The position numbers were made by a program, and so were the translations under genes. Below the pieces are notes generated by a model. The model was given only the letters and a program-made list of their open reading frames with translations, ran no database searches and had not been told where the DNA came from. Shown piece after piece: positions 2,902 through 56,951 of a DNA stretch of 64,000 bases (its first letter is position 1; each line of letters begins with the position of its first letter). The stretch is from a bacterium (lineage in GTDB: Bacteria; Patescibacteriota; Minisyncoccia; Minisyncoccales; GWA2-46-15), in NCBI GenBank assembly GCA_030693425.1, contig JAUYAM010000001.1, positions 10,858 through 74,857 of the forward strand, read 5' to 3'.

Positions 2902-3618
2902 CTAAAATCCGGTGAAAGACTTAATCACGGAAATGGGAATGGCTTGGACGTTGCCTTCGAGGCCAAGTTCGGCCAGACCGATAATCTCGCCTTCAATATT
3001 AAAAACCGGACTGCCGTTAAAAGCGGACTCTTCTAAGATATTAGTTTCAATCTTGTCAGCGCTGATTGCCTTGATAATCCCCTCATTAACAATCATTTGT
3101 GAACCGTCTTTGCCAAAACGATAACTAATCGCAAAAACCCTTTCTCCTAATTTCAACTCTCCTGAATCGGCAAAACCGATGGTCGTTGAATAATCTACTT
3201 CAAGCTTAATTAGAGCTAAGTTTTCCTTTAAATCTCTTTTTAAAACCTGAAAGGCATAGGACTTGCCTTCGAGGAAAAAGCTAAAAACCTCTCCTTGGGG
3301 AACCAGTTCTGCCAAGGTGACGACCAAGCCGTCGTTGGTAATGACTATGCCCGAACCTTCAAGAATTCCACCGTTTTTCAGCTTTGTCTTTACTCCGACC
3401 ACGGTTTTGGAAACCTTGTCAACCGCTTCTTCTAGAGCCGTATTCTCCTGGATAATCACCTCCTTTCTCTCGGTGACATAGACCGACGGCTGGTCAAGCC
3501 GATACTGATAAAAAAGAGGCCTCTCAATAAAATAAGGCCAGAGTATTTGATCTGCAAAAATGCCTCCGGCGATTCCGAAGACGAAAGTCAGGAGAAGATA
3601 AATAATTTTCATTCCCAT
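2902..3618 (-). CDS. Membrane-anchored trypsin/HtrA-like domain protein, catalytic triad apparently degenerate
   Basis: GSGIVITNDGLVVT and NGSPVFNIEGEIIGL align to HtrA blocks, but TNxHV is TLAELV and GNSGGP is FNGSP. The start was moved to ATG 3618 (MGMKIIYLLLTFVF, a TM helix), 5 nt after the clpB stop. The longer ORF would overlap clpB. Confidence 0.6.
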   Translation of the reverse strand: MGMKIIYLLLTFVFGIAGGIFADQILWPYFIERPLFYQYRLDQPSVYVTERKEVIIQENTALEEAVDKVSKTVVGVKTKLKNGGILEGSGIVITNDGLVVTLAELVPQGEVFSFFLEGKSYAFQVLKRDLKENLALIKLEVDYSTTIGFADSGELKLGERVFAISYRFGKDGSQMIVNEGIIKAISADKIETNILEESAFNGSPVFNIEGEIIGLAELGLEGNVQAIPISVIKSFTGF

Positions 3619-3622
3619 AGAA

Positions 3623-6325
3623 CTAGGCAACCGGAGCTTTTTCTTTGGCTTCTGCCTTGACGTTTTTAATAGATTTTGGCAGGGGAAAAACGATCTTGCC
3701 GTTTTCTTCATCAACCAAAACCGGAACTCCTGATTCTATCTCGGCCGTCACCAGTTTTAAAGCCAGGGGATCTAAGATCAGCTGCTGGATAACTCTTTTG
3801 AGAGGCCGGGCTCCCAGGTTCTGATCAAAGCCTTTGCCAACCAAAAACTCCTTGGCTTTTTCAGAAAATCCGAGCTCAATCTTCTTGGTTTTCAGCCTGG
3901 CAGTAACTTTCCCCAGCTCGAGCTCAACGATCTTCCTGATCTCGTCCTTGCCGAGATAGTTGAAGACAATGATCTCGTCAACCCGATTCAGAAATTCGGG
4001 CCTAAAAGTATCTTTCAAAGCCTGAAGAACCTTGTCTTTCAGGGATTCTCTCATGGAATTGCTTTCGTCTCCGGAAGTAAACCCTAAAGCCGCCTCTCTG
4101 GTGATAATCTCAGACCCAGCATTTGAGGTCATAACCAGAATGGCGTTTTTAAAAGAAGCGACTCTGCCCTTGGCATCGGTTAATCTGCCATCTTCGAGTA
4201 TCTGCAAGAGCATGTTAAAAACCTCGGGGTGGGCTTTTTCGATCTCGTCGAGAAGAACAACGCTGTAAGGGCGCCGGCGGATCTTTTCGGTCAGCTGGCC
4301 GCCCTCTTCGTAACCGACGTAGCCAGGGGGGCTACCTATCATTTTTGAAACCGTATGCTTTTCCATATACTCCGACATATCAAGCCTGATCATGGCGTTC
4401 TCGTCATTAAAAAGGAACCCGGCCAAGGCCCTGGCGGTCTCGGTCTTGCCGACTCCGGTCGGACCCAAGAACATGAAAGACCCCAACGGCCGGTTCTCTT
4501 CTGAAATGCCGACCCGGGACCTGCGAATGGCGTTGGCGATCGCTTTAATGGCTTCGCTCTGGCCGACAACCCTTTTCGTCAGGATCTCCTCAATTCTGGC
4601 CAGTTTTCTGACTTCTTCTTCCATCAGCCTGGTTACGGGAATGCCCGTCCAGCGGCAAACCACTCCAGCGATGTCTTCCTCGTCGACTTCCTTTTTCAGA
4701 ATTGGCTTTATCCTTTGGACTATTGCCAGCTTCCTCTCAGAGCTTCTCAGCTGTTTTAAAAGTCCGGGGATTTTCCCATACTTTACCTCGGCGACCTTCT
4801 GAAGGTCGCCCTGCCTCTGGGCGGCTTCTGCTAAAAATTGAGCTTCTTCAATTTCCTTTCTTAAATCCTTGATTTTATCAACAATCTCTTTCTCGCCTTT
4901 CCACCGGCCCTCGATCGCCTTGATCCTCTCGCTTAAATCAGCTAACTGCCGGGAAACCGTCTTAATTTTCCTGGCAGACCCCTTTTCGTTCTTTAAGGCC
5001 TGCTTTTCAATCTCTAGTTTCTGGGCTTCCCTTTTCAAATTCTCCAGGTCTGCCGGCTCAGACTCCATTTCCAGTTTTAAAGAACTCATGGCCTCGTCCA
5101 TCAAGTCAACTGCCTTATCCGGCAAGAATCTGTCAGGAATATACCTGGCAGACAATTCAGCTGCCGCCCTCAGGGCAAAATCCTTGATTTTGACACCGTG
5201 ATACAACTCGTACTTTTCCCTGATCCCTCTCAAAATCAAAACGGCGTCTTCGATTGAGGGTTCGGCTACGTAAATGGGCTGGAATCTTCTTTCCAGAGCC
5301 GGGTCCTTTTCAACGTATTTCTGATACTCCTTGAGAGTGGTGGCGCCGATCGCCCGCAACTCTCCCCTGGCCAAAGCCGGCTTTAAAAGGTTAGAAGCGT
5401 CAATAGCGCCTTCGGCGGCCCCGGCTCCGACCAAAGTGTGAAGCTCGTCAATAAAAAGGATATAGCGGCCCGAGGCCCGATTAACTTCTTTCAGCAAGGC
5501 CTTGATCCTGTCTTCGAACTCGCCCCGATACTTTGTTCCGGCGATAATCGCGCCCAAATCCAGGGCAATGATTTCCTTGTCTCTCAAGCTCTGAGGAACT
5601 TCTGAATTGATAATCCTTTGAGCTAAGCCTTCAACGACCGCGGTCTTGCCGACTCCGGCCTCGCCGATCAGAACCGGATTATTCTTGGTCCGCCGAGACA
5701 AAACCTGCATCAGCCTCCTGATTTCGTTCTCTCTGCCAATAACCGGATCCAGTTTTCCCTGCCTGGCCAGCTGGGTCAGATTCCTGGCATACTTTTCAAC
5801 CACCTGGTATTTTGACTCCGGTTCCGGATCGGTAACTCTCTGGCCGCCCCTGATCTGGGCCAGGATTCTCAAAGCTGTTTCGTAGTCTAGCTTGCCGAAT
5901 TCAAGAATGGTTGATCCGTCGCCAATGGCGCTGGCTTTCTCTAAGATGTCTTTGGCCCGGGTCGGCACTGCCAGCAGCGCTAAAAATAAATGCTCGACCG
6001 AAATGAATTCGTCTCCCATTTTCATTGACTCCTGCCTGGCCGTTTCCATCACTCTGCCCATGTCCTGGGTCAGATAGAACTGGCCGAAAGCCTGAGGAGC
6101 AACAATCGTTGATATCTTGGCGATCTCCTGATCAACCTTCTTTCTCAAGGCTTCGCTATCGACTCCAAGTTTTTGCAGAAGACTGGAAACAACGCTTTCT
6201 TCTTCAGAAAGCAAAGCCATTAGCAAATGCAGGGCGTCAATCTGCTGCTGGCCCCTTTCTTGAGCGATGTTTTGAGCCCGGAGAATCGTGTCTTGGGCTT
6301 TGCGGGTAAAATTGCCTCCGTTCAC
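3623..6325 (-). CDS. clpB: ClpB disaggregase (two AAA+ modules plus middle coiled coil)
   Basis: Clp N-domain, Walker [11 protein letters not shown] and GPTGVGKTE, and a long coiled-coil M-domain. 900 aa with a GTG start. Confidence 0.95.
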
Positions 6326-25542: not shown

Positions 25543-25612
25543 TGCCATATTAACACCTGCGGTCGCAGGTATTGTTATGCCAAACTATGAGTGAAGCTAA
25601 GCTTTACTCAAA

Positions 25613-25650
25613 ATAAAAAGCCAGGGCGAATAAACAACCCTGGCTTTCCA
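25613..25650. terminator. Bidirectional terminator between pth and the Zn-ribbon genes
   Basis: Hairpin GCCAGGG-N11-CCCTGGC at 25620-25644, flanked by an A-run on one side and a T-run on the other. Confidence 0.6.
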
Positions 25651-25656
25651 AGGTCG

Positions 25657-25842
25657 TCAATCCCAATCCTCTTTAGGTCTGACAACCTTGAACTTTTTCC
25701 CGCACTTTTGGCAAGTTTTAATCTTGCCCGCGCGGGATGCTTCGTCGAGACTCCGCCCGTGATACTTTGCATTACAATGGGGACAATTCACGGTCGGAAT
25801 CTCTTCGAAATGAATCGTCGTCTCGAGAATTAATTCTTCCAT
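25657..25842 (-). CDS. Small Cys4 zinc-ribbon protein, paralog 1
   Basis: MEELILETTIHFEEIPTVNCPHCNAKYHG...TCQKCGKKFKVVRPK. The CPHC...C..CGKxF pattern is shared with the neighbouring gene. Confidence 0.55.
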   Translation of the reverse strand: MEELILETTIHFEEIPTVNCPHCNAKYHGRSLDEASRAGKIKTCQKCGKKFKVVRPKEDWD

Positions 25843-25876
25843 TTTTCTCACCTTCTTTCCTTTGAATCTATTCCAT

Positions 25877-26053
25877 CTATCCCATCTGCCTATTTTTTTT
25901 CTTAGGCAGAACGGGCCGGAACCGTTTGCCGCAGCGCGAACAGGTCATAGAATGCTTCTGCCTCGCTGCATAGTCAACGGCATTTCCCCCCGTTTTGTTG
26001 CCACAATGAGGGCAACATACTGTTTGATCTCTTTGAACATCTGCCTTTTTCAT
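25877..26053 (-). CDS. Small Cys4 zinc-ribbon protein, paralog 2
   Basis: MKKADVQRDQTVCCPHCGNK...TCSRCGKRFRPVLPKKK. A strong SD (CAGGAGGAAGA) precedes ATG 26053. Confidence 0.6.
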   Translation of the reverse strand: MKKADVQRDQTVCCPHCGNKTGGNAVDYAARQKHSMTCSRCGKRFRPVLPKKKNRQMG

Positions 26054-26270
26054 TCTTCCTCCTGGATTCTTGAGTATGAAACCGCCACAAAATACGGGGC
26101 GGAAAATAAAATTTGTCCCCCGGCCTACTGACAAGCGCGATCATCAAGCAACATTTGCTGCCAACGATCCCCTTTAAGCTAGAAATCATTAAGGAGGGAT
26201 AGATTTCCAGCAACTCGTCAGTAGACCGCGAGGCAAATTAATGTTTTGATTATAACAAACAATACCTAAA

Positions 26271-49479: not shown

Positions 49480-49508
49480 AGTTTAGATCAGCGGAGAACA
49501 GTTCTCCG

Positions 49509-50399
49509 CTAGATAGAAAATAATTCGCGAGCGTTCTTTGTTGTCTGTTCTTCTATTTCTTGATAGCTTAATTTTTTGATTTTCGCAATTTCCCGAACAA
49601 CCTGCTTCACGAACAACGGTTCGTTCCGGAGATTCGCTGAACCACACTGACCCTCCCGCTGAACTACGCTGGAATTTGGTGGAATAAGATAAGGCGCGTC
49701 GGTTTCTACCAAAATTCTATCTAAAGGCGCGGCCTTGATAATTTCTTGCCAGTTTATCCCCGCGATCTGCTTAAAAATGATTCCGTTAAAACCCAAAGAC
49801 AATCCCAGGGCTAAATATTGCCGCATTTGCTCTACTGTGCCAGTAAAACAGTGCATTACTCCTCGCAACTTAGTATCTTGTATTTTGTATCTAGTATTTA
49901 GTATTTCTATAAGATCGTCATGAGCGGAGCGACAATGAAAAATAGTTGGTAAATTCAATTCCTTTGCCAAATCCATCTGCGACGACAAGCCCTGTTTCTG
50001 AAGATTTTTGAATATTTCTAATTTTGTTTTACTTTTCGGCTTCCAATAATAATCCAGGCCGATTTCGCCAATGGCCACAACTTTTTTTGAGCTGGCGGCG
50101 AGTTTCCGGTAATCCTCAATATCAAAGCCCTTGACCGTTTCTTGCGCCGCTGCTTCTTCCGGATCAAGCTTGTTTTTAATTAAATCCGCTGTTCCGAGGA
50201 CGTGAATCGGATGCAAGCCAATGGCGGCAAAAACGCCTTGGGGATATTTTTCTGTTAGCTCAATTGCTTTTTCGCTCGTTTCCAGCTGCGAGCCGACATT
50301 AATCATCCAAACCTCATTAGCTAAAGACCGTTGAATAACTTTGTCAACGTCATCTTTAAAAGCGTTGAAATTCAAATGGCAATGGGTATCTATTATCAT
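49509..50399 (-). CDS. tatD: TatD-family metal-dependent hydrolase
   Basis: MIIDTHCHLNF, GEIGLDY, IFHCRSA, HCFTG, ETDAPYL. Confidence 0.9.
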   Translation of the reverse strand: MIIDTHCHLNFNAFKDDVDKVIQRSLANEVWMINVGSQLETSEKAIELTEKYPQGVFAAIGLHPIHVLGTADLIKNKLDPEEAAAQETVKGFDIEDYRKLAASSKKVVAIGEIGLDYYWKPKSKTKLEIFKNLQKQGLSSQMDLAKELNLPTIFHCRSAHDDLIEILNTRYKIQDTKLRGVMHCFTGTVEQMRQYLALGLSLGFNGIIFKQIAGINWQEIIKAAPLDRILVETDAPYLIPPNSSVVQREGQCGSANLRNEPLFVKQVVREIAKIKKLSYQEIEEQTTKNARELFSI

Positions 50400-50520
50400 A
50401 ATCCCATTTTAACCTAATTTTGCCGTCTCTGAAACAATTCTCTTGTCCGATGCGGTACCCGAATTTAGTAAAATTAAGGTACTCAAGTATCTGATTTAAA
50501 TACCCATTGATTTGAGTTTA

Positions 50521-50557
50521 AAAAAACAAAAGCGCCTCGGGTTCTTCCCAAGGCGCT
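50521..50557 (-). terminator. Intrinsic terminator closing the micro-peptide locus
   Basis: Hairpin AGCGCCT-N13-AGGCGCT at 50531-50557, followed on the minus strand by TTTGTTTTTT. Confidence 0.7.
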
Positions 50558-50572
50558 TTGTGCTATTTTTGA

Positions 50573-50776
50573 CTAATAACCTCCTCCGCCATGATGAAGG
50601 TGTGTTTCGGCCAACTTCTCGGCTGCCAGCTCGAGCGCCTTGGCCTCGTCCCAATATTTCACCGCATGCTGACGGTCTTTGGTTTCCTTCATCCTTTCGT
50701 AAAGATCTTGCGCCTGATCTCTCATCTCCCCAATAACCTTACTCCAATCAATCTCGCTAACATCTTTGGTGGTCAT
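50573..50776 (-). CDS. Hypothetical 67-aa helical protein
   Basis: The SD GAGAGGAG sits 6 nt before the ATG. MTTKDVSEIDWSKVIGEMRDQAQDLYERMKE...HLHHGGGGY. Confidence 0.6.
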   Translation of the reverse strand: MTTKDVSEIDWSKVIGEMRDQAQDLYERMKETKDRQHAVKYWDEAKALELAAEKLAETHLHHGGGGY

Positions 50777-50788
50777 GACAATCTCCTC

Positions 50789-50929
50789 TCATTGTTTTGA
50801 GTTATCGCGGGCAATTAAACAGAAAGCCACGATCATGGCCGCGACCAATAGAACGAACGCGACGACTGATCCTGTCCCCGTCAAAACGCAAGGGTCGCAA
50901 GCGATAGCAGACAAGCCATATGGGATCAT
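50789..50929 (-). CDS. 46-aa single-TM micro-protein
   Basis: SD AAAAGGAGATTTGAG precedes the ATG. MIPYGLSAIACDPCVLTGTGSVVAFVLLVAAMIVAFCLIARDNSKQ. Below the ORF-track cutoff. Confidence 0.5.
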   Translation of the reverse strand: MIPYGLSAIACDPCVLTGTGSVVAFVLLVAAMIVAFCLIARDNSKQ

Positions 50930-50968
50930 CTCAAATCTCCTTTTATGATCGGCAAAAGATAAAAGGGT

Positions 50969-50996
50969 GAGGCGACGGCGTACGCTCCGTCGCCTC
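50969..50996 (-). terminator. Intercistronic hairpin/partial terminator after the 19-aa peptide gene
   Basis: 10-bp stem GAGGCGACGG-N8-CCGTCGCCTC, followed on the minus strand by ACCCTTTTATCTTTTG. Confidence 0.5.
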
Positions 50997-50999
50997 CTT

Positions 51000-51059
51000 C
51001 TACGACGCCCACGGCCCGTAACGGAAAGTACAGCGGCCGCGGAAAGACCAACGAACCAT
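51000..51059 (-). CDS. 19-aa cationic peptide MVRWSFRGRCTFRYGPWAS
   Basis: SD AGAAAGGAGG precedes the ATG. It is a paralog of 51307-51390, and codons 3-12 differ from that paralog mostly by synonymous changes. Confidence 0.6.
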   Translation of the reverse strand: MVRWSFRGRCTFRYGPWAS

Positions 51060-51099
51060 AGCTACCTCCTTTCTTGTCAAAGAACTGTCGGTCTCGGCT

Positions 51100-51129
51100 A
51101 AAACAAAAACTGGCCCGCCGAGAGACCAG
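51100..51129 (-). terminator. Attenuator terminator C
   Basis: Minus-strand RNA CUGGUCUCUCGGCGGGCCAG followed by UUUUUGUUUU. It lies between micro-ORF P1 and the SD of the 19-aa peptide gene. Confidence 0.6.
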
Positions 51130-51168
51130 TTTTAGAAAGTCAAGGTTTTTAAATGGATTACTATTATA

Positions 51169-51279
51169 TTACCTCAACGCGCCGAAACTAACCTCTGGCA
51201 AAATAAGAGGATAATAGTAATAATAGGCATTGCCTTGAACGGCGTCCTGAATATTAAATTTGCTAAATTTTTGTGTCAT
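51169..51279 (-). CDS. Aromatic-codon micro-ORF P1 (candidate leader peptide)
   Basis: MTQKFSKFNIQDAVQGNAYYYYYPLILPEVSFGALR, with five consecutive Tyr codons. The decoy GAGGUUAGUUU (51195-51185) can pair with terminator C's 5' arm (51132-51122). Confidence 0.5.
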   Translation of the reverse strand: MTQKFSKFNIQDAVQGNAYYYYYPLILPEVSFGALR

Positions 51280-51306
51280 ATAAATTGGTATTCTTAAGCT
51301 TTAACT

Positions 51307-51390
51307 TTAATGGGGAGGATAGATTATTCTATCCTCCGATTGACCGATGAACCAAAATGTGCACCGGCCGCGGAAAGTCCATCGACGCAT
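51307..51390 (-). CDS. 27-aa cationic peptide MRRWTFRGRCTFWFIGQSEDRIIYPPH
   Basis: SD AAAGGAGA precedes the ATG. It shares RW(S/T)FRGRCTF with 51000-51059. The 3' end is encoded by a 9-bp hairpin at 51314-51337. Confidence 0.6.
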   Translation of the reverse strand: MRRWTFRGRCTFWFIGQSEDRIIYPPH

Positions 51391-51404
51391 GGCGTCTCCT
51401 TTCT

Positions 51405-51542
51405 TTAGAAGCCCTGTTGTGGAGGAAGAACTATTATCCACCACGGGATCGATCCACTGTCGCTACGACTAACAATCATTATCGTAGCGACAAGAACGAC
51501 GACAGAAAGAACAACAATTAAGATAATCTTTCTGTTTTTCAT
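51405..51542 (-). CDS. 45-aa single-TM micro-protein
   Basis: SD AGAAAGGAGG precedes the ATG. MKNRKIILIVVLSVVVLVATIMIVSRSDSGSIPWWIIVLPPQQGF. Confidence 0.5.
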   Translation of the reverse strand: MKNRKIILIVVLSVVVLVATIMIVSRSDSGSIPWWIIVLPPQQGF

Positions 51543-51573
51543 TCCGCACCTCCTTTCTTGGAGAGTAAAGAAC

Positions 51574-51598
51574 TAAAAACTGGTCTCCGCGAAACCAG
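51574..51598 (-). terminator. Attenuator terminator B
   Basis: Minus-strand RNA CUGGUUUCGCGGAGACCAG followed by UUUUU, directly before the SD of the 45-aa gene. Confidence 0.65.
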
Positions 51599-51636
51599 TT
51601 GTAGAGAGTCAAAAGATTTTTAAAAATTCCCTTACT

Positions 51637-51714
51637 TTAACGCTCTAAAACTAGTCTCTGGAAAAGACTATAGAAGTAGTTAAAGTAAAAGAATTTTTGC
51701 GATTTCTGTTTCAT
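51637..51714 (-). CDS. Aromatic-codon micro-ORF P4 (candidate leader peptide)
   Basis: MKQKSQKFFYFNYFYSLFQRLVLER, with 8 Phe/Tyr in 11 codons. The decoy GAGACUAGUUUUAG (51658-51645) is complementary to CUACAACUGGUUUC (51604-51591). Confidence 0.5.
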   Translation of the reverse strand: MKQKSQKFFYFNYFYSLFQRLVLER

Positions 51715-51733
51715 ATGTTGAAAATTAACATAA

Positions 51734-52894
51734 TTAAATCTTATTGTCAAGGGCAATATAATAGAATGGTTTATTATCTTGATCTTGGTCAAAATAAACC
51801 TGAGTGTAATTCTCCTGCCGGCGTTTGATATCAATAAGGTATTCTATCAAAAAAAGATTTTTCCTCGGAGAATAAACGGGCACTCCGTGATAGGGCAACC
51901 GGGTACAAATCCTACTAACGGGGAAAATGCCCAAACGATTTGCTTTGGGAGAAACAGTTAAAGGCAGACCGTGTGGCACAACTTTTTCCAGATAATCAAT
52001 GTCGTCACGCGTCTTAAGATAAGCGTGGTATTGAAAAATAGACTCATGCGTTCTTTTCTTGATGTCTTCACGGACCTTACGAGCCTCGGCAGTAATTTCT
52101 TCGTCTTTCAAATTTTCATTGTAAACATCCATTAATAAACTTTCGTCATACATCTTTGTTGAAACGATTCTCAAAACCGATTCGTAGGTTCCTCGATATT
52201 TAGCTAAGAAATCGGGATCTTGTTTTTGATAAAGCTCTTTGAATTCAGCTACTCTCTTCTGATAATGCCCTTGGAAATCCGGCACGATTTTTTCCATCTC
52301 CGATAAATCGATAATCTTTAAAACAGAGTTTAGTCCTAACAACTCATTTAGCTTTTCCAGGAATTCTCGATAAGCAATCCAATCTTCTTCCGGAACGCCG
52401 CTAAATCTTCCGAAGACCCCCTCGGTAAAAATCGTAATAACTGCGCCGGGAGGGTAAACTTTTTGGATATTATCAGCAATCTCACTCAATCTCAACAGAG
52501 ACAAAACTTCTCCCATATCAGGAAAAGTCCTGCTGGTTTTCAGGGGGACTGGCACTTTAAAAGGAAACCCTAAAATTGTCAGCTGGATAAGCAGACCATG
52601 ATTAATGAAATAATTAAGTTTAGAGACCCAAAAATCCTTATTCTCTTGGATATATTCTCTCGGCCCAAAACGATAATTCTCGTCTTGGAATATGGAGAGA
52701 ATTTTCTCGGCAATCGTTTCGCCATTAATCTGCGGGTTGGGCATGGGCAATATTTCGATCAGTCTTTTCAATTCGGATAAATCGATCCCTTTTTTGCTAA
52801 TAAGATTATTGTGGATATTTTTATCTGCGAGATTAACGAACGGTACGAAAGGATAAACAAAAGTGTTTGCTTTCATGTTTTTAAATTCTAACAT
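51734..52894 (-). CDS. PvcA/Dit1-like protein (isonitrile synthase/dityrosine-biosynthesis family)
   Basis: ILGFPFKVPVPLKTSRTFPDMGEVLSLLRL...VYPPGAVITIFTEGVF and TVSPKANRLGIFPV...LPYHGVPV parallel the PvcA blocks (AFPxKSPNPxK...PDMAE...YxPGAxIxICSDGRVF and LSIHP...KxGI...TPWHxV), recalled from memory. Confidence 0.6.
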   Translation of the reverse strand: MLEFKNMKANTFVYPFVPFVNLADKNIHNNLISKKGIDLSELKRLIEILPMPNPQINGETIAEKILSIFQDENYRFGPREYIQENKDFWVSKLNYFINHGLLIQLTILGFPFKVPVPLKTSRTFPDMGEVLSLLRLSEIADNIQKVYPPGAVITIFTEGVFGRFSGVPEEDWIAYREFLEKLNELLGLNSVLKIIDLSEMEKIVPDFQGHYQKRVAEFKELYQKQDPDFLAKYRGTYESVLRIVSTKMYDESLLMDVYNENLKDEEITAEARKVREDIKKRTHESIFQYHAYLKTRDDIDYLEKVVPHGLPLTVSPKANRLGIFPVSRICTRLPYHGVPVYSPRKNLFLIEYLIDIKRRQENYTQVYFDQDQDNKPFYYIALDNKI

Positions 52895-52953
52895 AATAAA
52901 TTTACTTTAAAGAACCGGGGGCTACTGTAGTTTACAATAGCCCCCACTTTTCT

Positions 52954-54471
52954 CTATACAACATAGTAGAAAACGTATGGCTCACCCGTTAAGCCGAACT
53001 CTAGTGGTGAAATCTTTACTTGTTTCGCCTTTGGATGTTCAAAGCTTATCCGGTACTCCGGCACAATCCACATTTTATGGGCGCCGTCAGCGAGACGAGA
53101 AACTACGGGCATCCCGTGGTTTAATAAAGCATTGGCAGTGACGTCAAAGACAATTCTCGCCGCCTTATCGGTAATGCAAGCATCAATGAAGTCATTCACG
53201 CCCAAGATACGGGAAAAGATTCTTGCTCTTTTTCGATAGGCCAAAAGCTTTGCCATAGCGACGGCTGTAATCTCCGCCTTCCGCCACAAATCTTCTCCCA
53301 TCATGAGCCGAAGGGCCTGATAGTTCCTATCTCGTCTAATATAAAGGTCAGCCATCACGTCCATTTGAAGCATATCTGGCAGACTGCAGGCGACAGCGTA
53401 AGTTTGGTCGAAATCTACACCGACGTTAATTGCTTCTACCTCCTTTACTGGAAAAAGGTCTGGCTTCAATTCGACAACCTCGACTGGCGCCCCAAGCGCA
53501 GAGAAAAGTTTCCTACAGATAGAAAGCATCTGCATCACGCTTGCCGGCTCAAGCCCTGTTAGTGAAGCAAAAAGCGTCGCTTCATCAAAGATCACAACCC
53601 TCAACCCTGGCTCATAAATCGTCTTCACTTTCTCGTTGATCAAAGCGAAGAAAAAAGCGAGATATAGCCAAGCGAGTGTTGGAAAGGCAATGACCTCCTT
53701 GAACTTTAATGGGTTAGGAATTCTTGTGCCGATAGCAAAGGAAAGCGTGATTGGTACGGGTTGATTGCGACGCACATAGGTTTTGATAATATTAGCGAGC
53801 CGCGCCAACTCTGCTGCCGGAACTTCAATCTTTTCTTCCGTGTGGGCGATGATAATCCTCAGAATGCCTTCGGCGACACTTCCCCGAGACGGTGAGTAAC
53901 CGGCCATTTTAATTGACAACAAAGATCGGTAAAACCCAATCTCTTTTTCTATTGTTGTCATTCCAGAAGCTATATCGGGCAATGTCAGCTGTAACGGCTT
54001 GGATGCCGCCGCTATTTTTTCCAGGGCCTTAGACAAATCTGCCTGGAAACGACGGGAAGAAAGGTCTAATTTTCTTTTATCGTCTCCGACGGAAATAACC
54101 GCTGACATACCCTCAATATCTACTTTGATTATCTTGGCAAAAGCTGACCAGGGATAATGAGTAGAAGCCACCATCTTCTCAGGGATGGTTTTAACGAGGC
54201 TATGAGGATCGTAAATCCACGCCACCGATTCTTTGATTGTTTCTAAATCTCCTGGCCCTTCGCCTACTTTTATCAGGCGACAGTTAAAACCGATTTGCTG
54301 AAATGCTCCGATGAGATTTTCTGGAACGGCTAAGGTGACTCCCGCCTCACCTAAATCAATAATCATTCTCCAGTATTCATCTTTTTCGGCTCTTTCCAGA
54401 ATTTCCAAGGCAATTGTTTCCGGGAGCTTATCGTTTAATACAAATCCCTTAGGGTTGACAACAACGTTCAT
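52954..54471 (-). CDS. Divergent PvcA/Dit1-like protein with a roughly 230-aa N-terminal extension
   Basis: ITLSFAIGTRIPNPLKFKEVIAFPTLAWLYLAFF...IYEPGLRVVIFDEATLF and ITDKAARIVFDV...LNHGMPVVS show the same block order as the downstream paralog. SD AAAGGAGAG. Confidence 0.45.
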   Translation of the reverse strand: MNVVVNPKGFVLNDKLPETIALEILERAEKDEYWRMIIDLGEAGVTLAVPENLIGAFQQIGFNCRLIKVGEGPGDLETIKESVAWIYDPHSLVKTIPEKMVASTHYPWSAFAKIIKVDIEGMSAVISVGDDKRKLDLSSRRFQADLSKALEKIAAASKPLQLTLPDIASGMTTIEKEIGFYRSLLSIKMAGYSPSRGSVAEGILRIIIAHTEEKIEVPAAELARLANIIKTYVRRNQPVPITLSFAIGTRIPNPLKFKEVIAFPTLAWLYLAFFFALINEKVKTIYEPGLRVVIFDEATLFASLTGLEPASVMQMLSICRKLFSALGAPVEVVELKPDLFPVKEVEAINVGVDFDQTYAVACSLPDMLQMDVMADLYIRRDRNYQALRLMMGEDLWRKAEITAVAMAKLLAYRKRARIFSRILGVNDFIDACITDKAARIVFDVTANALLNHGMPVVSRLADGAHKMWIVPEYRISFEHPKAKQVKISPLEFGLTGEPYVFYYVV

Positions 54472-54512
54472 CTCAAACTCTCCTTTCTTTTGTATAGAGA
54501 TTTTAAAAGAAC

Positions 54513-54537
54513 TAAAAACTGGTCTCCGCGAGACCAG
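54513..54537 (-). terminator. Attenuator terminator A
   Basis: Minus-strand RNA CUGGUCU-CGCGG-AGACCAG followed by UUUUU. It lies 41 nt upstream of the 505-aa gene ATG. Confidence 0.65.
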
Positions 54538-54572
54538 TTGTAGAGAGTTGAAAGGATTTTTCCTAAGAAGAG

Positions 54573-54686
54573 TTAATCATTATCCTCTCCACGCCCCAAA
54601 GCTGGCCTCGTGGAAATAAAAGGATAATAAAACCAAAAACTAATTTGATTTAACTCTTTATTTGGTTTTCTTATTTTTTTAGCCAT
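54573..54686 (-). CDS. Aromatic-codon micro-ORF P2 (candidate leader peptide)
   Basis: MAKKIRKPNKELNQISFWFYYPFISTRPALGRGEDND. The decoy CGAGGCCAG (54610-54602) mimics the 3' arm of terminator A (GAGACCAG). Confidence 0.5.
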   Translation of the reverse strand: MAKKIRKPNKELNQISFWFYYPFISTRPALGRGEDND

Positions 54687-54703
54687 AATTGCGTTTGTTT
54701 GAA

Positions 54704-54728
54704 TTAAAAAAAGGCCTCTGGGGAGGCT
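54704..54728 (-). terminator. Terminator following micro-ORF P3
   Basis: Minus-strand RNA GCCUC-CCCA-GAGGC followed by CUUUUUUU. Confidence 0.55.
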
Positions 54729-54760
54729 TCTTCTGTCTATCGTTATTGGTTTTTAGAGAA

Positions 54761-54844
54761 TTAACGCACAGTCAAAAGATTGCCTCCCGCGAGGGTTAAA
54801 AAGTAGGAATAAAACCAAAATTTTGCGGTCGCAATCTTCTTCAT
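54761..54844 (-). CDS. Aromatic-codon micro-ORF P3 (candidate leader peptide)
   Basis: MKKIATAKFWFYSYFLTLAGGNLLTVR. An in-frame upstream ATG at 54859 lies inside the predicted -10 box. The decoy GGGAGGC (54788-54782) is complementary to GCCUCCC of its own terminator. Confidence 0.45.
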   Translation of the reverse strand: MKKIATAKFWFYSYFLTLAGGNLLTVR

Positions 54845-54857
54845 ATTGGATATTATC

Positions 54858-54886
54858 ATTTAACCACTTATCAAAGTTCTTGTCAA
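54858..54886 (-). promoter_or_regulatory. Candidate promoter of the locus
   Basis: Read on the minus strand: TTGACA (54886-54881), 17 nt spacer, TTAAAT (54863-54858). Confidence 0.4.
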
Positions 54887-54897
54887 GGACAAGCAAG

Positions 54898-54917
54898 AAA
54901 AAATCCCCCGCCGGATC
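54898..54917 (-). terminator. Weak terminator after the 45-aa basic peptide gene
   Basis: Minus-strand RNA GAUCC-GGCGG-GGAUU followed by UUUUC. Confidence 0.35.
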
Positions 54918-54944
54918 TCCTAACGAGGGATTCTTTTCTACTTC

Positions 54945-55082
54945 CTATTTTGTTTTTTTGGACGAACCGTTTTCGATCCGCCAAGTTTTCCAAAATTGCC
55001 GCCACCAGCGCCTTTTTCCCTTCCTGCTGGTAGCTGGACAGATACTTCTTTTACCCGGACCACGAAAAGGGTTTCTTGCCAT
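54945..55082 (-). CDS. 45-aa highly basic Trp-rich peptide
   Basis: SD CTGGAGGAAAG precedes the ATG. MARNPFRGPGKRSICPATSRKGKRRWWRQFWKTWRIENGSSKKTK. The N-terminal M-x-R-x-x-F-R-G matches the RWxFRGRCTF peptides. Confidence 0.5.
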   Translation of the reverse strand: MARNPFRGPGKRSICPATSRKGKRRWWRQFWKTWRIENGSSKKTK

Positions 55083-55196
55083 TTTACTTTCCTCCAGAAA
55101 ATTGAATTTTAAAAGGACTGTCTCGGGCTTTTGGGCCGAGATTGGCCGCCAGTCGCTTCCTCGACGGCCAATGTCCGAACTGAAAACCCGAGGACT

Positions 55197-55221
55197 AAAA
55201 AACCCTGGCTGCAGGCCAGGG
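55197..55221 (-). terminator. Strong intrinsic terminator
   Basis: Hairpin CCCTGGC-N5-GCCAGGG at 55203-55221, followed on the minus strand by TTTTTT. Confidence 0.8.
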
Positions 55222-55253
55222 GGTTGGAACTAAGATATGGTAGATTTATGGTT

Positions 55254-55346
55254 TCAAGATTTCCTAATTAAACCCTCTGGCCTTTGTCCAAGGTTAATGA
55301 CCAAAAGATTAATAGTTAAATTTAATCCGCGAAAACTTTCTGACAT
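55254..55346 (-). CDS. 30-aa ORF inside a short promoter-to-terminator unit (or a small RNA)
   Basis: MSESFRGLNLTINLLVINLGQRPEGLIRKS. No SD. Begins about 9 nt after the predicted transcription start. Confidence 0.3.
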   Translation of the reverse strand: MSESFRGLNLTINLLVINLGQRPEGLIRKS

Positions 55347-55361
55347 AGTTTTGTAATTCTC

Positions 55362-55389
55362 ATCATAGCCAATCAAAACCTATTGTCAA
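55362..55389 (-). promoter_or_regulatory. Sigma70-like promoter immediately after the metG stop
   Basis: Read on the minus strand: TTGACA (55389-55384), 16 nt spacer, TATGAT (55367-55362). Confidence 0.5.
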
Positions 55390-55394
55390 GAGCG

Positions 55395-56951
55395 CTATGC
55401 CTCTATTTTCGGGAAAAGCGGGCCTGGGTTTTTGATTTCTGTCCCGGGTTTAATGTTAGTCCAGCTATCCTTGTTTAAAGGATTTTTAACCAATATTTTT
55501 TGGATGCCCAAAGCCTCAGCGATTTTTCGGCTCGTCTCCGGTAAAAATGGGTATATTTGCCAGGCAACCTGATGTAAAGAATCCAAAAGCCCGTACAAAA
55601 CCCAATTTAAGTCCTCTTGTTTCCCCTCCTTGGCCAAAACCCAAGGCTTTTGTTGGTCAATATATTTGTCCGCCTCGCTGATAAACCGCCAGACAGCAGC
55701 TAAAGCGTCGTTAAACCGGTATTCAGCCATGTTTTTATCTAAATCCGCCCAACTCTTTTTCCAATTATAGATATTTTCATCAATCCTTAATGGATGGCTG
55801 TCTGGGTCTCGGTTAACTTTAGGAACTTTCCCGCCGCAGTAGTTCTTCACCATTGTCAGAACTCGGGAAACAAGGTTGCCCAAGCCGTTGGCCAAATCAG
55901 CGTTATAAACCTCTTTCAGCTTGCTCTCGGAGAAATCTCCATCTTCAAACGGAGAAACTTTAGCTAAGAGATAATAACGGATAACGTCGGCGCCATATTT
56001 TTCGATAATCGGGGCCGGATCAATAACCGTTGATGGGTCGGACTTACTTATCTTTTTCCCGTCAACTGTCAGATAACCATGGATTAAGACGCATTTAGGA
56101 AGAGGAAGTCCGGCCGAGAGTAAAAAAGCTGGCCAATAGACGGCGTGAAACCGGCTGATTCCTTTCCCAATGACATGAACATCCGCCGGCCACCACTTCT
56201 GGTACATCTCTTCATCCCAGCCAAAACCAATGCCGCTTTGATAAATATTTAAAGCGTCCATCCAGACGTAGATTTTTTGAGACGGATCTCCCGGCACCGG
56301 CACGCCCCAATCCTTCGCTCTTTCATTGGACCGGGAAATAGAAATATCAGAAAGACCGCTTTTCAGAAAACTTAGCACCTCGTTCTTTCTGAACTCAGGT
56401 ACGATTTTAAGATCTCCGTCCTCAATAAGCTGGACGATCTTATCTTGATATTTTGAAAGCGCAAAGAAATAGTTCTCTTCTTCCACCTGATCAAGTTTTT
56501 TGCCGCCATGCTCGGGACATTCGCCTTTTTCATTTAAATCCTCTGGAGTGTAAAAAGCTTCGCAGCCAACGCAATAAAGTCCCTTATATGGTTTTTTATA
56601 GATATCCCCGTTTTGAGCGCACCGTTCCCAAAGTTTTTGGCTCGAGAGAAAATGATGGTTCTGATCACTGCCTTTCTGCCAGACATTAAACTCGCCGTTT
56701 AATTTTATTGCTAGTTGCCGAAAGGCTTCCGTATTTTCGTCAATAAATTCCTTGAGCGGCCGGCCGGCTTTCTCTGCCGCCTGAACATTTTTCAGAGCGT
56801 TTTCATCCCCGCCGGAAAGAGATAACCCTTCCTCGCCTAAAAGCTGATGATACCTTTTAAGCGCATCAACCTGAACGAATTCCAACGCATGCCCAGTATG
56901 GGGCTTGGAATTTGCGTAAGGTATTGCAGCGGTAATATAGAATTTATTCAT
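55395..56951 (-). CDS. metG: Methionyl-tRNA synthetase
   Basis: IPYANSKPHTGHALE (HIGH-type), Cys knuckles, KISKSD (KMSKS). Confidence 0.95.
   Translation of the reverse strand: MNKFYITAAIPYANSKPHTGHALEFVQVDALKRYHQLLGEEGLSLSGGDENALKNVQAAEKAGRPLKEFIDENTEAFRQLAIKLNGEFNVWQKGSDQNHHFLSSQKLWERCAQNGDIYKKPYKGLYCVGCEAFYTPEDLNEKGECPEHGGKKLDQVEEENYFFALSKYQDKIVQLIEDGDLKIVPEFRKNEVLSFLKSGLSDISISRSNERAKDWGVPVPGDPSQKIYVWMDALNIYQSGIGFGWDEEMYQKWWPADVHVIGKGISRFHAVYWPAFLLSAGLPLPKCVLIHGYLTVDGKKISKSDPSTVIDPAPIIEKYGADVIRYYLLAKVSPFEDGDFSESKLKEVYNADLANGLGNLVSRVLTMVKNYCGGKVPKVNRDPDSHPLRIDENIYNWKKSWADLDKNMAEYRFNDALAAVWRFISEADKYIDQQKPWVLAKEGKQEDLNWVLYGLLDSLHQVAWQIYPFLPETSRKIAEALGIQKILVKNPLNKDSWTNIKPGTEIKNPGPLFPKIEA

Follow-up and report, generated by a model that had tools for sequence, protein, structure and literature searches.

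Five attenuator-type units are arranged within 4.9 kb on the minus strand of a 64,000-nucleotide stretch of DNA (the window), which comes from a metagenome-assembled genome of the Patescibacteria, or Candidate Phyla Radiation (CPR). Four of the units, P3, P2, P4 and P1, start with a short open reading frame (ORF) rich in Phe, Tyr and Trp codons, and the fifth, P0, has a non-aromatic leader. We propose that these modules are ribosome-mediated (leader-peptide) transcription attenuators and put the probability of this reading at about two in three. An earlier note on this DNA had claimed an architecture of the trp/phe/his leader type, repeated four times in 4.3 kb. The architecture is supported computationally by folding, shuffling, conservation and co-variation. 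To the four aromatic modules P0 adds a fifth, just upstream of them.

Each unit is proposed to consist of a short ORF that contains regulatory codons, lacks a Shine-Dalgarno (SD) site and is in part leaderless, a decoy segment in the 3' part of this ORF, and an intrinsic terminator. A ribosome positioned at the stop codon would cover the decoy, the terminator would form and transcription would end. If the ribosome instead stalls at the aromatic codons, which lie 4 to 10 codons further upstream, the decoy would stay free to form an antiterminator, and RNA polymerase would read through into cargo genes led by a strong SD. P3 and P2 would act in series ahead of a pair of enzyme genes. Translation of the micro-ORFs is predicted from the sequence, and we infer that the stalling signal would be a shortage of aromatic aminoacyl-tRNA and that read-through would represent the starvation state.

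The aromatic leader reading frames

All four aromatic micro-ORFs translate as the earlier note had claimed (Table 1). Their cores, FWFYSYF in P3, FWFYYPF in P2, FFYFNYFY in P4 and YYYYY in P1, are aromatic at 6/7, 6/7, 7/8 and 5/5 positions, compared to a background aromatic fraction of 9.8% in 50 long ORFs of the window. The whole 64 kb, read on both strands, contains seven ATG-initiated ORFs of 12-80 residues with at least five aromatics per eight residues, and four of the seven are P1-P4. The P3 start codon is 13 nt past the -10 box of its promoter, and the same promoter arrangement is present in the relative L027 (loci of relatives are denoted by L and a number). The P4 promoter arrangement is kept in L027 too. 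The P4 start codon is positioned 7 nt past the -10 box, so that the P4 transcript looks leaderless.

Terminators, decoys and alternative folds

The terminators claimed to follow each micro-ORF were all found by a pattern scan (hairpins in Table 1). They lie 33-36 nt past the leader stop codon. Terminator-like sites, composed of a hairpin and a U-run, number 18 in the region compared to 7.5 +/- 2.6 in shuffles, and the motif AACTGG-N-CCAGTT is found three times in the window, where 0.05 occurrences are expected.

The decoy, whose 3' end lies at -8 to +6 nt relative to the stop codon, had been described as a near copy of the terminator 3' arm that could pair with the 5' arm. Such pairings do exist, but they extend further than described. 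The antiterminator helices have 18-22 bp, in which the decoy pairs with the 5' arm and also with a conserved 5' flank (CUCUACAA and similar) outside the terminator stem; this additional pairing explains the conservation of the flank. The calculated energies of the antiterminator duplexes are -20.9 to -27.3 kcal/mol, whereas those of the terminator hairpins are -6.6 to -13.8 kcal/mol. For the individual modules the values are -24.8 (18 bp) against -6.6 in P3, -25.7 (19 bp) against -13.8 in P2, -25.1 (22 bp) against -11.2 in P4 and -20.9 (22 bp) against -12.7 in P1. In RNAfold calculations the full-length minimum-free-energy fold of both P3 and P2 is the antiterminator. The decoy/5'-arm conformer therefore competes with the terminator and is usually the stronger of the two, far beyond what shuffled sequences give.

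The ribosome was modeled as a mask that makes all RNA unavailable as far as 13 nt past the A-site codon. The probability of the terminator, P(terminator), is 0.00 in P3, 0.00 in P2, 0.04 in P4 and 0.27 in P1 when the stall is placed at the first aromatic codon. With the ribosome at the stop codon it rises to 0.63, 0.97, 0.97 and 0.93, respectively. When the freed ORF segment was subjected to dinucleotide shuffling, a P(terminator) as low as the observed one was reached in none of 200 shuffles for each of P3, P2 and P4, and in 8 of 200 for P1. The same test, applied to 19 modules from several genomes, gave p <= 0.025 in 12. An empirical null was formed by all 506 terminator-like hairpins, 16% of which have P(terminator) below 0.1 given 80 nt of upstream sequence. 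Many weak intragenic hairpins make such a null noisy, and the strong intergenic hairpins with low values are mostly further modules.

P4 has an additional element. Its region 1, which comprises the aromatic codons, pairs with region 2, which spans the stop codon and a little on either side of it (51679-51698 with 51622-51641). The pairing encloses the decoy and restores the terminator, so that the untranslated leader terminates, with P(terminator) of 0.97. The restoration was not seen in any of 100 sequences in which the 5' part was shuffled; the shuffles were mononucleotide ones, and the cut point of the test is not meaningful for P2. An untranslated aromatic-codon stretch would thus hide the decoy in P4 in the manner of the trp 1:2, 2:3 and 3:4 pairings. 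The anti-antiterminator is clear in P4, L1_B and L27_P1. P3, P2 and P0 lack it, and in P1 it does not reach significance.

In the minimum-free-energy fold of the fifth module, P0, the decoy forms 20 bp with the 5' flank and arm (55213-55235) at an energy of -27.3 kcal/mol, and P(terminator) is 0.00 given 80 nt of upstream sequence. The 45-aa cationic peptide that follows has no Pfam or NCBIfam match, and its N-terminus is loosely like the RW peptides described below (xFRG...C). A strongly structured spacer of ~80 nt (55115-55196, minus strand) separates the P0 terminator from the SD of this peptide. The 266-nt region has a folding z-score of -3.8, and the spacer has no Rfam match. A similar spacer sequence (GGACaTTGGCCGTCGAG...) occurs in L001 at 3345-3415, upstream of the gene for a 533-aa enzyme.

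Conservation in close relatives

Two close relatives bear on the comparison of homologous loci. L027, with 77% enzyme identity, has orthologs of all four leaders. L001 (69% enzyme identity, Nealsonbacteria) has three modules positioned downstream of the enzymes, each controlling an RW peptide and nothing else. In every one of these modules the ORF, aromatic run, decoy and terminator are retained. A pattern suited to finding such modules in Nealsonbacteria-like genomes would be RACTYYCTNNAACTGG...CCRGTTT.

The decoys are near-invariant in nucleotides between orthologs, and the N-terminal parts of the leaders vary freely. The P3 decoy is 100% identical at the nucleotide level in its L027 ortholog, and 7 of the 18 codons upstream of it differ. 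The aromatic block of P2 is identical in L027. Elsewhere the aromatic positions drift while their number is kept, as in FWFYSYF versus IWFYFYL and FFYFNYFYSLF versus LFYFNYFYGLL. P4-type ORFs translate the motif ACUAGUUUU(A/G)G as L-V-L and P1-type ORFs as T-S-F (...LVLER versus ...TSFGALR). Because it is read in two frames, this segment is conserved as RNA and not as peptide.

The antiterminator of the AACUGG type was analyzed in an alignment of ten modules. In register, 88% of the cells are paired, compared to 57-60% when one strand is slid by one column in either direction. Five pairs have changed on both sides, which is reached by 5 of 500 shuffles. The co-variation of decoy and terminator, noticed earlier within the array, thus holds both within the AACUGG type and across terminator types.

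These data bear on the idea that the decoys are non-functional remnants of terminator arms duplicated in a recent repeat, and that the aromatic ORFs are chance products of AT-rich DNA. Paralogy of the three AACUGG-type modules is clear, and each decoy is similar to the 3' arm of its own terminator, as a remnant would be. Remnants, however, would not be expected to persist at 69-77% enzyme identity with changes that preserve pairing, and unrelated terminator types in distant lineages carry their own matching decoys. The shuffling tests speak against chance, and the aromatic enrichment is far above background. This explanation is extremely improbable.

Modules in other Patescibacteria

The two enzymes of the locus, of 386 and 505 residues, have identical counterparts among the MAG proteins of NCBI, and their relatives come almost exclusively from Patescibacteria. 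In ~15 of 22 distinct lineages of the group, the PvcA-like gene pair is immediately preceded by a leader-like ORF and a hairpin. When the hairpin was sought first, upstream of the homolog of the 505-aa gene, 12 of the 15 lineages with a hairpin also had a leader ORF just before it. In L015 and L037 a hairpin precedes the operon with no clear ATG-initiated ORF, and any leader is missing from L002, L005, L028 and L039. The association is thus common without being universal.

Terminators with a CCUCCC arm go with decoys of the GGGAGG type (W_P3, L018, L021 and L029), which accounts for the 'GG' in those leader peptides. L007, L010, L022, L024 and L035 have their own terminator/decoy combinations. 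In L018 (4149-4173), L021 (4251-4272) and L022 (617-636) the 3' arm of the terminator (GGGAGG or CCGGC) is located 5-9 nt before the cargo start. At this distance the hairpin would block the ribosome-binding site as well, so that one switch would act on both transcription and translation.

Across 25 modules, an ATG-initiated ORF ends 15-50 nt before the hairpin in all 25 compared to 4.8 expected, and 22 contain at least six hydrophobic or aromatic residues per eight compared to 1.8 expected; the set was chosen partly by the presence of an ORF, and this ascertainment bias makes the p-values optimistic.

The regularity of the ORFs is difficult to reconcile with the proposal that the micro-ORFs are untranslated and that their U-rich or triplet-repeat stretch is bound by a factor acting in trans, as with TRAP, HutP or PyrR, which would decide between the decoy/arm pairing and the terminator. 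The lack of SD sites at the micro-ORFs fits such a factor, as does the engagement of the P4 aromatic-codon stretch in RNA pairing. The codon runs, however, differ in nucleotides (UAU, UUY, UGG UGG, AUG AUG) and agree in amino-acid class, the stop codon always adjoins the decoy, and attenuators with leaderless short ORFs have a precedent (10.1101/834739). A factor of this kind is, in our estimate, very improbable.

The locus L008 (3568-4503) provides an internal control for the proposed attenuation. Here the stop codon of a Met-rich leader, MKIYSVNMMEMMTS, directly adjoins a decoy, and a terminator and a SAM_HAT (DUF62) gene come next. The 3' arm of the terminator, GGAGG, doubles as the SD of this gene. 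Members of the SAM_HAT/DUF62 family hydrolyze S-adenosylmethionine (SAM) to adenosine and L-methionine. The regulated gene would thus supply the amino acid that the leader is predicted to sense. A putative Met leader before a Met-releasing enzyme is what amino-acid-specific attenuation predicts, and it argues that these bacteria use attenuation of this kind. A second leader in L008, MKHALNMIFVLLITP (4563-4610), precedes the PvcA-like gene pair.

The cargo genes

The earlier note had assigned two PvcA/Dit1-like proteins to the locus, and this is right: the 386-aa protein has a Pfam match to the family and the 505-aa protein (big505) has a structural one. The 386-aa protein also matches PIsnA/PvcA in the Protein Data Bank with E = 1e-10 to 1e-12. 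The 505-aa protein has no Pfam match, but its AlphaFold model (pLDDT, the predicted local distance difference test score, is 85) matches entries 9dh4, 9dhm and 3e59 (PIsnA/PvcA) with E = 2e-11 to 1e-9 and a probability of 1.0. Its additional N-terminal domain of ~170 residues has an alpha/beta fold and is missing in some homologs from relatives, which are 320-360 residues long. Beyond PvcA, the fold search gave a weak similarity to class I Tyr/Trp-tRNA synthetases.

Neither protein reaches the 600-bit cut-off of the NCBIfam PvcA equivalog model (56 bits for the 386-aa and 15 bits for the 505-aa protein). A PvcB/IsnB Fe/2-oxoglutarate dioxygenase partner was found neither in the window nor among the neighbor genes scanned in relatives. 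The enzymes are predicted to be distant PvcA relatives, and a canonical isonitrile cluster is not supported. In such a cluster PvcB/IsnB is expected downstream of the Dit1-like gene, and the relatives have ROK kinases and HAD phosphatases instead. The genes around the PvcA-like pair in other Patescibacteria (last row of Table 1) encode Cof-type HAD phosphatases, ROK-family kinases and M20/M28 peptidases. These neighbors are a hint, and no more than that, of a pathway that would salvage aromatic or hydrophobic amino acids or process their conjugates.

The remaining cargo of P4 and P1 consists of two single-transmembrane (TM) peptides of 45 and 46 residues (TM45 and TM46), two peptides with the motif RWxFRGRCTF (the RW peptides, RW1 and RW2) and a 67-aa protein. 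None of these products has a Pfam or NCBIfam family. The SD AGAAAGGAG claimed after the P2, P4 and P1 terminators sits before big505, TM45 and RW2, respectively. The RW motif is kept in L001 and L027 with many synonymous changes. There are five copies of the RW peptides, with many synonymous differences between them and a strong SD; on these two grounds they are real genes. A homolog search using the extended ORF of 45 residues found nothing. As the RW peptides are confined to the window, L027 and L001, they are a lineage-specific cargo and not a defining part of the system.

Hairpins occur directly after the RW ORFs or overlap their ends (50969-50996 and 51314-51337, both on the minus strand); the one at RW1 has no U-run. 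The RW2 stop codon is 3 nt ahead of a strong terminator hairpin, so that a terminating ribosome would occupy the 5' arm. Translation of the RW peptide may influence read-through into the genes of TM46 and the 67-aa protein.

The proximity of aromatic peptides and PvcA-like enzymes suggests another explanation, close to the alternative offered in the earlier note. P1-P4 would be micro-peptides, or precursors resembling those of ribosomally synthesized and post-translationally modified peptides (RiPPs), for the PvcA-like enzymes; the leaky terminator would set the ratio of precursor to enzyme and the decoy would tune the leakiness. Several paralogous aromatic peptides do lie beside two enzymes of a family that utilizes Tyr and Trp, some of the micro-ORFs have promoters of their own, and the association persists across the Patescibacteria. 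The 3' parts, however, are conserved as nucleotides in two frames, and the peptides share a composition but no conserved leader or core sequence. The L001 modules are downstream of the enzymes and control RW peptides alone. Families of RiPP maturases, proteases or exporters are absent from the window and the relatives. In the PvcA/IsnA family the reaction takes place at the free alpha-amino group of an amino acid, and the Met-rich leader before the SAM hydrolase in L008 fits regulation and not a precursor. The precursor explanation is disfavored, and we consider it quite improbable.

Evidence against attenuation and the nature of the signal

Several observations weigh against the attenuator proposal. 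No SD site is present at any of the micro-ORFs, whereas every cargo gene has AGAAAGGAG(G). P2 and P1 also lack a promoter of their own, so that their translation would require SD-independent initiation within a transcript. In P2 the terminator persists, at 0.97, when the ribosome is stalled at the last aromatic codon. The switch in P1 is weaker, with P(terminator) of 0.27 to 0.61. The distant modules L1_C, L4_1, L10, L35_b and L18 show no significant decoy effect in the shuffling test. The folding is thermodynamic, does not include co-transcriptional kinetics and masks all RNA behind the ribosome. The U-rich codons could partly reflect constraints at the RNA level. The leaders of distant relatives are often rich in Leu, Ile and Phe and not purely aromatic, and the signal may therefore be broader than 'aromatic'.

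The cargo is a further difficulty. As the earlier note had pointed out, it is not biosynthetic; PvcA-like enzymes and micro-peptides have no function in aromatic amino-acid biosynthesis or aminoacylation, and none of the regulated genes in the window supplies or charges the amino acid that would be sensed. Characterized PvcA/IsnA enzymes bind Tyr or Trp, and this is the only link between cargo and signal. Induction of a Tyr/Trp-consuming enzyme by starvation would be counter-intuitive.

A cargo of this kind would also be expected if the same RNA switch were operated by nascent-peptide-dependent ribosome arrest, as in TnaC, SpeFL or the Erm-type leaders, and not by tRNA charging. The aromatic nascent chain would then halt the ribosome when it senses a small molecule, for which an antibiotic, the product of the pathway or a free aromatic amino acid are candidates. 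All the structural data on the switch fit arrest equally well, and aromatic-rich nascent chains are plausible interactors of the exit tunnel. Known arrest peptides, however, keep specific residues, whereas here the composition is kept and the positions drift between orthologs. Moreover, the run YYYYY, and MMEMM before the SAM hydrolase, are a hallmark of codon sensing. Arrest is an unlikely explanation in our judgment.

Attenuation in response to tRNA charging can be extended to a broader picture, which is speculative and which we would not expect to hold in full. Patescibacteria would use arrays of leaderless attenuators as gauges of aromatic or hydrophobic aminoacyl-tRNA. When supply is low, a conserved two-enzyme PvcA-fold module and, in the present lineage, Arg/Trp-rich cationic micro-peptides and tiny membrane proteins would be expressed as a starvation programme that serves amino-acid salvage or host exploitation, not biosynthesis. 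The Patescibacteria are generally devoid of amino-acid biosynthesis. If attenuation is correct, these ultra-small bacteria sense amino-acid supply by means of the ribosome itself, and a widespread PvcA-like pair and unannotated micro-peptides are tied to a shortage of aromatic or hydrophobic amino acids. The switch is compact (~150 nt) and can be tested in surrogate hosts. It also provides a search recipe for unannotated leaders in uncultivated lineages: one looks for a terminator whose 5' arm has its match where a short ORF upstream ends.

Gene order and coordinates

The array is flanked by metG (55395-56951) and tatD (49509-50399). On the minus strand, the first unit consists of a promoter, the P0 leader, its terminator, the structured spacer, the 45-aa cationic peptide and a second terminator. 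It is followed by a promoter, P3 and its terminator, P2 and its terminator, and an SD, the 505-aa protein and a hairpin. The gene of the 386-aa Dit1/PvcA protein comes next and carries the P4 promoter within its 3' end. P4, its terminator, an SD, TM45 and RW1 form the fourth unit. The last one comprises P1, its terminator, an SD, RW2, a hairpin, TM46, the 67-aa protein and a final terminator. The public annotation of the Dit1-like protein begins at the second Met (380 aa), and the public gene calls upstream of the 505-aa gene include no micro-ORFs, RW peptides or TM micro-proteins. Elsewhere in the window, 728 nt between two plus-strand genes (25543-26270) contain no ORF of at least 100 residues. 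A stable minus-strand hairpin within this interval (25635-25656) is out-competed by its own upstream sequence in the folding screen.

Table 1. Positions of the leader modules, their cargo and the neighborhoods of related gene pairs
Feature	Position	Strand	Details
P0 promoter	55362-55389	-	TTGACA, 16 nt, TATGAT; 11/12 consensus matches in promoter scan
P0 leader ORF	55254-55346	-	MSESFRGLNLTINLLVINLGQRPEGLIRKS; 30 aa, Leu/Ile/Asn-rich, non-aromatic; decoy 55261-55284
P0 terminator	55197-55221	-	CCCUGGCCUGCAGCCAGGG and U-run; hairpin 55203-55221
P0 cargo	54945-55082	-	45-aa cationic peptide MARNPFRGPGKRSICP...; terminator 54898-54930 after it
P3 promoter	54858-54886	-	TTGACA 54881-54886, 17 nt, TTAAAT 54858-54863; from sequence
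P3 leader ORF	54761-54844	-	MKKIATAKFWFYSYFLTLAGGNLLTVR; decoy 54767-54789
P3 attenuator	54704-54741	-	5' flank and 5' arm 54721-54741; hairpin GCCUCCCCAGAGGC 54714-54727; U-run to 54704
P2 leader ORF	54573-54686	-	...ISFWFYYPFISTRPALGRGEDND; decoy 54584-54611
P2 attenuator	54509-54548	-	5' flank and arm 54528-54548; hairpin 54517-54539; U-run
SD and 505-aa protein	52954-54488	-	SD AGAAAGGAG 54480-54488; protein 52954-54471, ~170-aa N-terminal domain, then PvcA/IsnA-fold domain
386-aa DIT1_PvcA-family protein	51734-52894	-	Pfam PF05141, E = 6.6e-21
P4 promoter	51722-51750	-	TTGACA 51745-51750, 17 nt, TAATTT 51722-51727; within 3' end of Dit1-like gene
P4 leader ORF	51637-51714	-	MKQKSQKFFYFNYFYSLFQRLVLER; region 1 (aromatic codons) 51679-51698; decoy 51634-51659; region 2 51622-51641
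P4 attenuator	51570-51614	-	5' flank and arm 51590-51614; hairpin 51578-51600; U-run
P4 cargo	51307-51558	-	SD; 45-aa single-TM peptide 51405-51542; RW peptide MRRWTFRGRCTFWFIGQSEDRIIYPPH 51307-51390
P1 leader ORF	51169-51279	-	...GNAYYYYYPLILPEVSFGALR; decoy 51170-51197
P1 attenuator	51098-51147	-	5' flank and arm 51121-51147; hairpin 51106-51133; U-run
P1 cargo	50529-51074	-	SD; RW peptide MVRWSFRGRCTFRYGPWAS 51000-51059; hairpin 50969-50996; 46-aa TM peptide 50789-50929
P1 cargo (continued)	50529-51074	-	67-aa protein 50573-50776; final terminator 50529-50559
PvcA-pair neighborhoods	L001 5231-8008, L002 4438-9086, L007 7146-8021, L035 4913-5776		

Comparison with known attenuators

A known leader family had to be excluded, and cmscan against Rfam at E <= 10 over 49500-56000 gave sub-threshold noise only. 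The best match to a leader was His_leader, with 19.8 bits against a threshold of 49, on the up45 region; Trp_leader, Leu_leader, Thr_leader, the Phe leaders and the T-box likewise stayed below their gathering thresholds. A literature search found no report of an isonitrile synthase in Patescibacteria or of leader-peptide attenuation in the CPR, and work on PF05141/DIT1_PvcA was found for fungi and Pseudomonas only. To our knowledge, leader-peptide attenuation is known almost exclusively before amino-acid biosynthesis and tRNA-synthetase genes of Proteobacteria, Actinobacteria and a few Firmicutes.

The closest known systems are pheL-pheA, pheM-pheST, trpL and aroR of Corynebacterium glutamicum (PMC11802643, PMC3082878, PMC1262725). 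In E. coli pheL-pheA and pheM-pheST a leader with Phe codons causes read-through when charged tRNA is scarce (PMC11802643, PMC3082878). The modules described here resemble them in having an ORF with aromatic codons, an intrinsic terminator and a mutually exclusive antiterminator that uses the 3' part of the leader. They differ in their mixed Phe/Tyr/Trp runs, in leaders that lack an SD and in the five tandem or serial units. Furthermore, their cargo is neither biosynthetic nor a tRNA synthetase, and there is no similarity to an Rfam leader.

The aroR leader (Phe-Tyr-Phe), upstream of aroF in C. glutamicum, is reported to control read-through by means of a stalled ribosome (PMC11802643, citing Neshat et al. 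2014). Mixed aromatic codons in the leader peptide are common to both systems. However, aroR is present in a single copy with three regulatory codons and regulates 3-deoxy-D-arabino-heptulosonate 7-phosphate (DAHP) synthase, an enzyme of aromatic biosynthesis. Here there are 5-8 aromatic codons per leader, in a lineage that generally does without amino-acid biosynthesis.

P4 has the full anti-antiterminator, antiterminator and terminator logic of E. coli trpL (1:2, 2:3, 3:4). P3, P2 and P0, unlike trpL, have no 1:2 element and fold into the antiterminator when untranslated. A further difference from trpL is that the antiterminator extends to a conserved flank beyond the stem of the terminator.

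Mycobacterial polycysteine leaderless short ORFs are cysteine-responsive attenuators of downstream operon genes (10.1101/834739). They are leaderless, as some of the present ORFs appear to be, and like these they are unannotated and contain runs of one codon class. The amino acid and the phylum are different, however, and the explicit pair of Rho-independent terminator and decoy found here is a classical transcriptional design. Lantibiotic and bacteriocin precursors with leaky terminators share a small peptide gene with its own promoter, followed by a hairpin and enzyme genes. The present locus, in contrast, has no known RiPP machinery and no conservation at the peptide level, and its decoy/antiterminator and two-frame nucleotide conservation have no counterpart in those systems. 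The logic of the modules is the same as that of the known attenuators. What differs is the phylum, the mixed aromatic runs, the leaders without an SD, the serial and tandem layout and the non-biosynthetic cargo.

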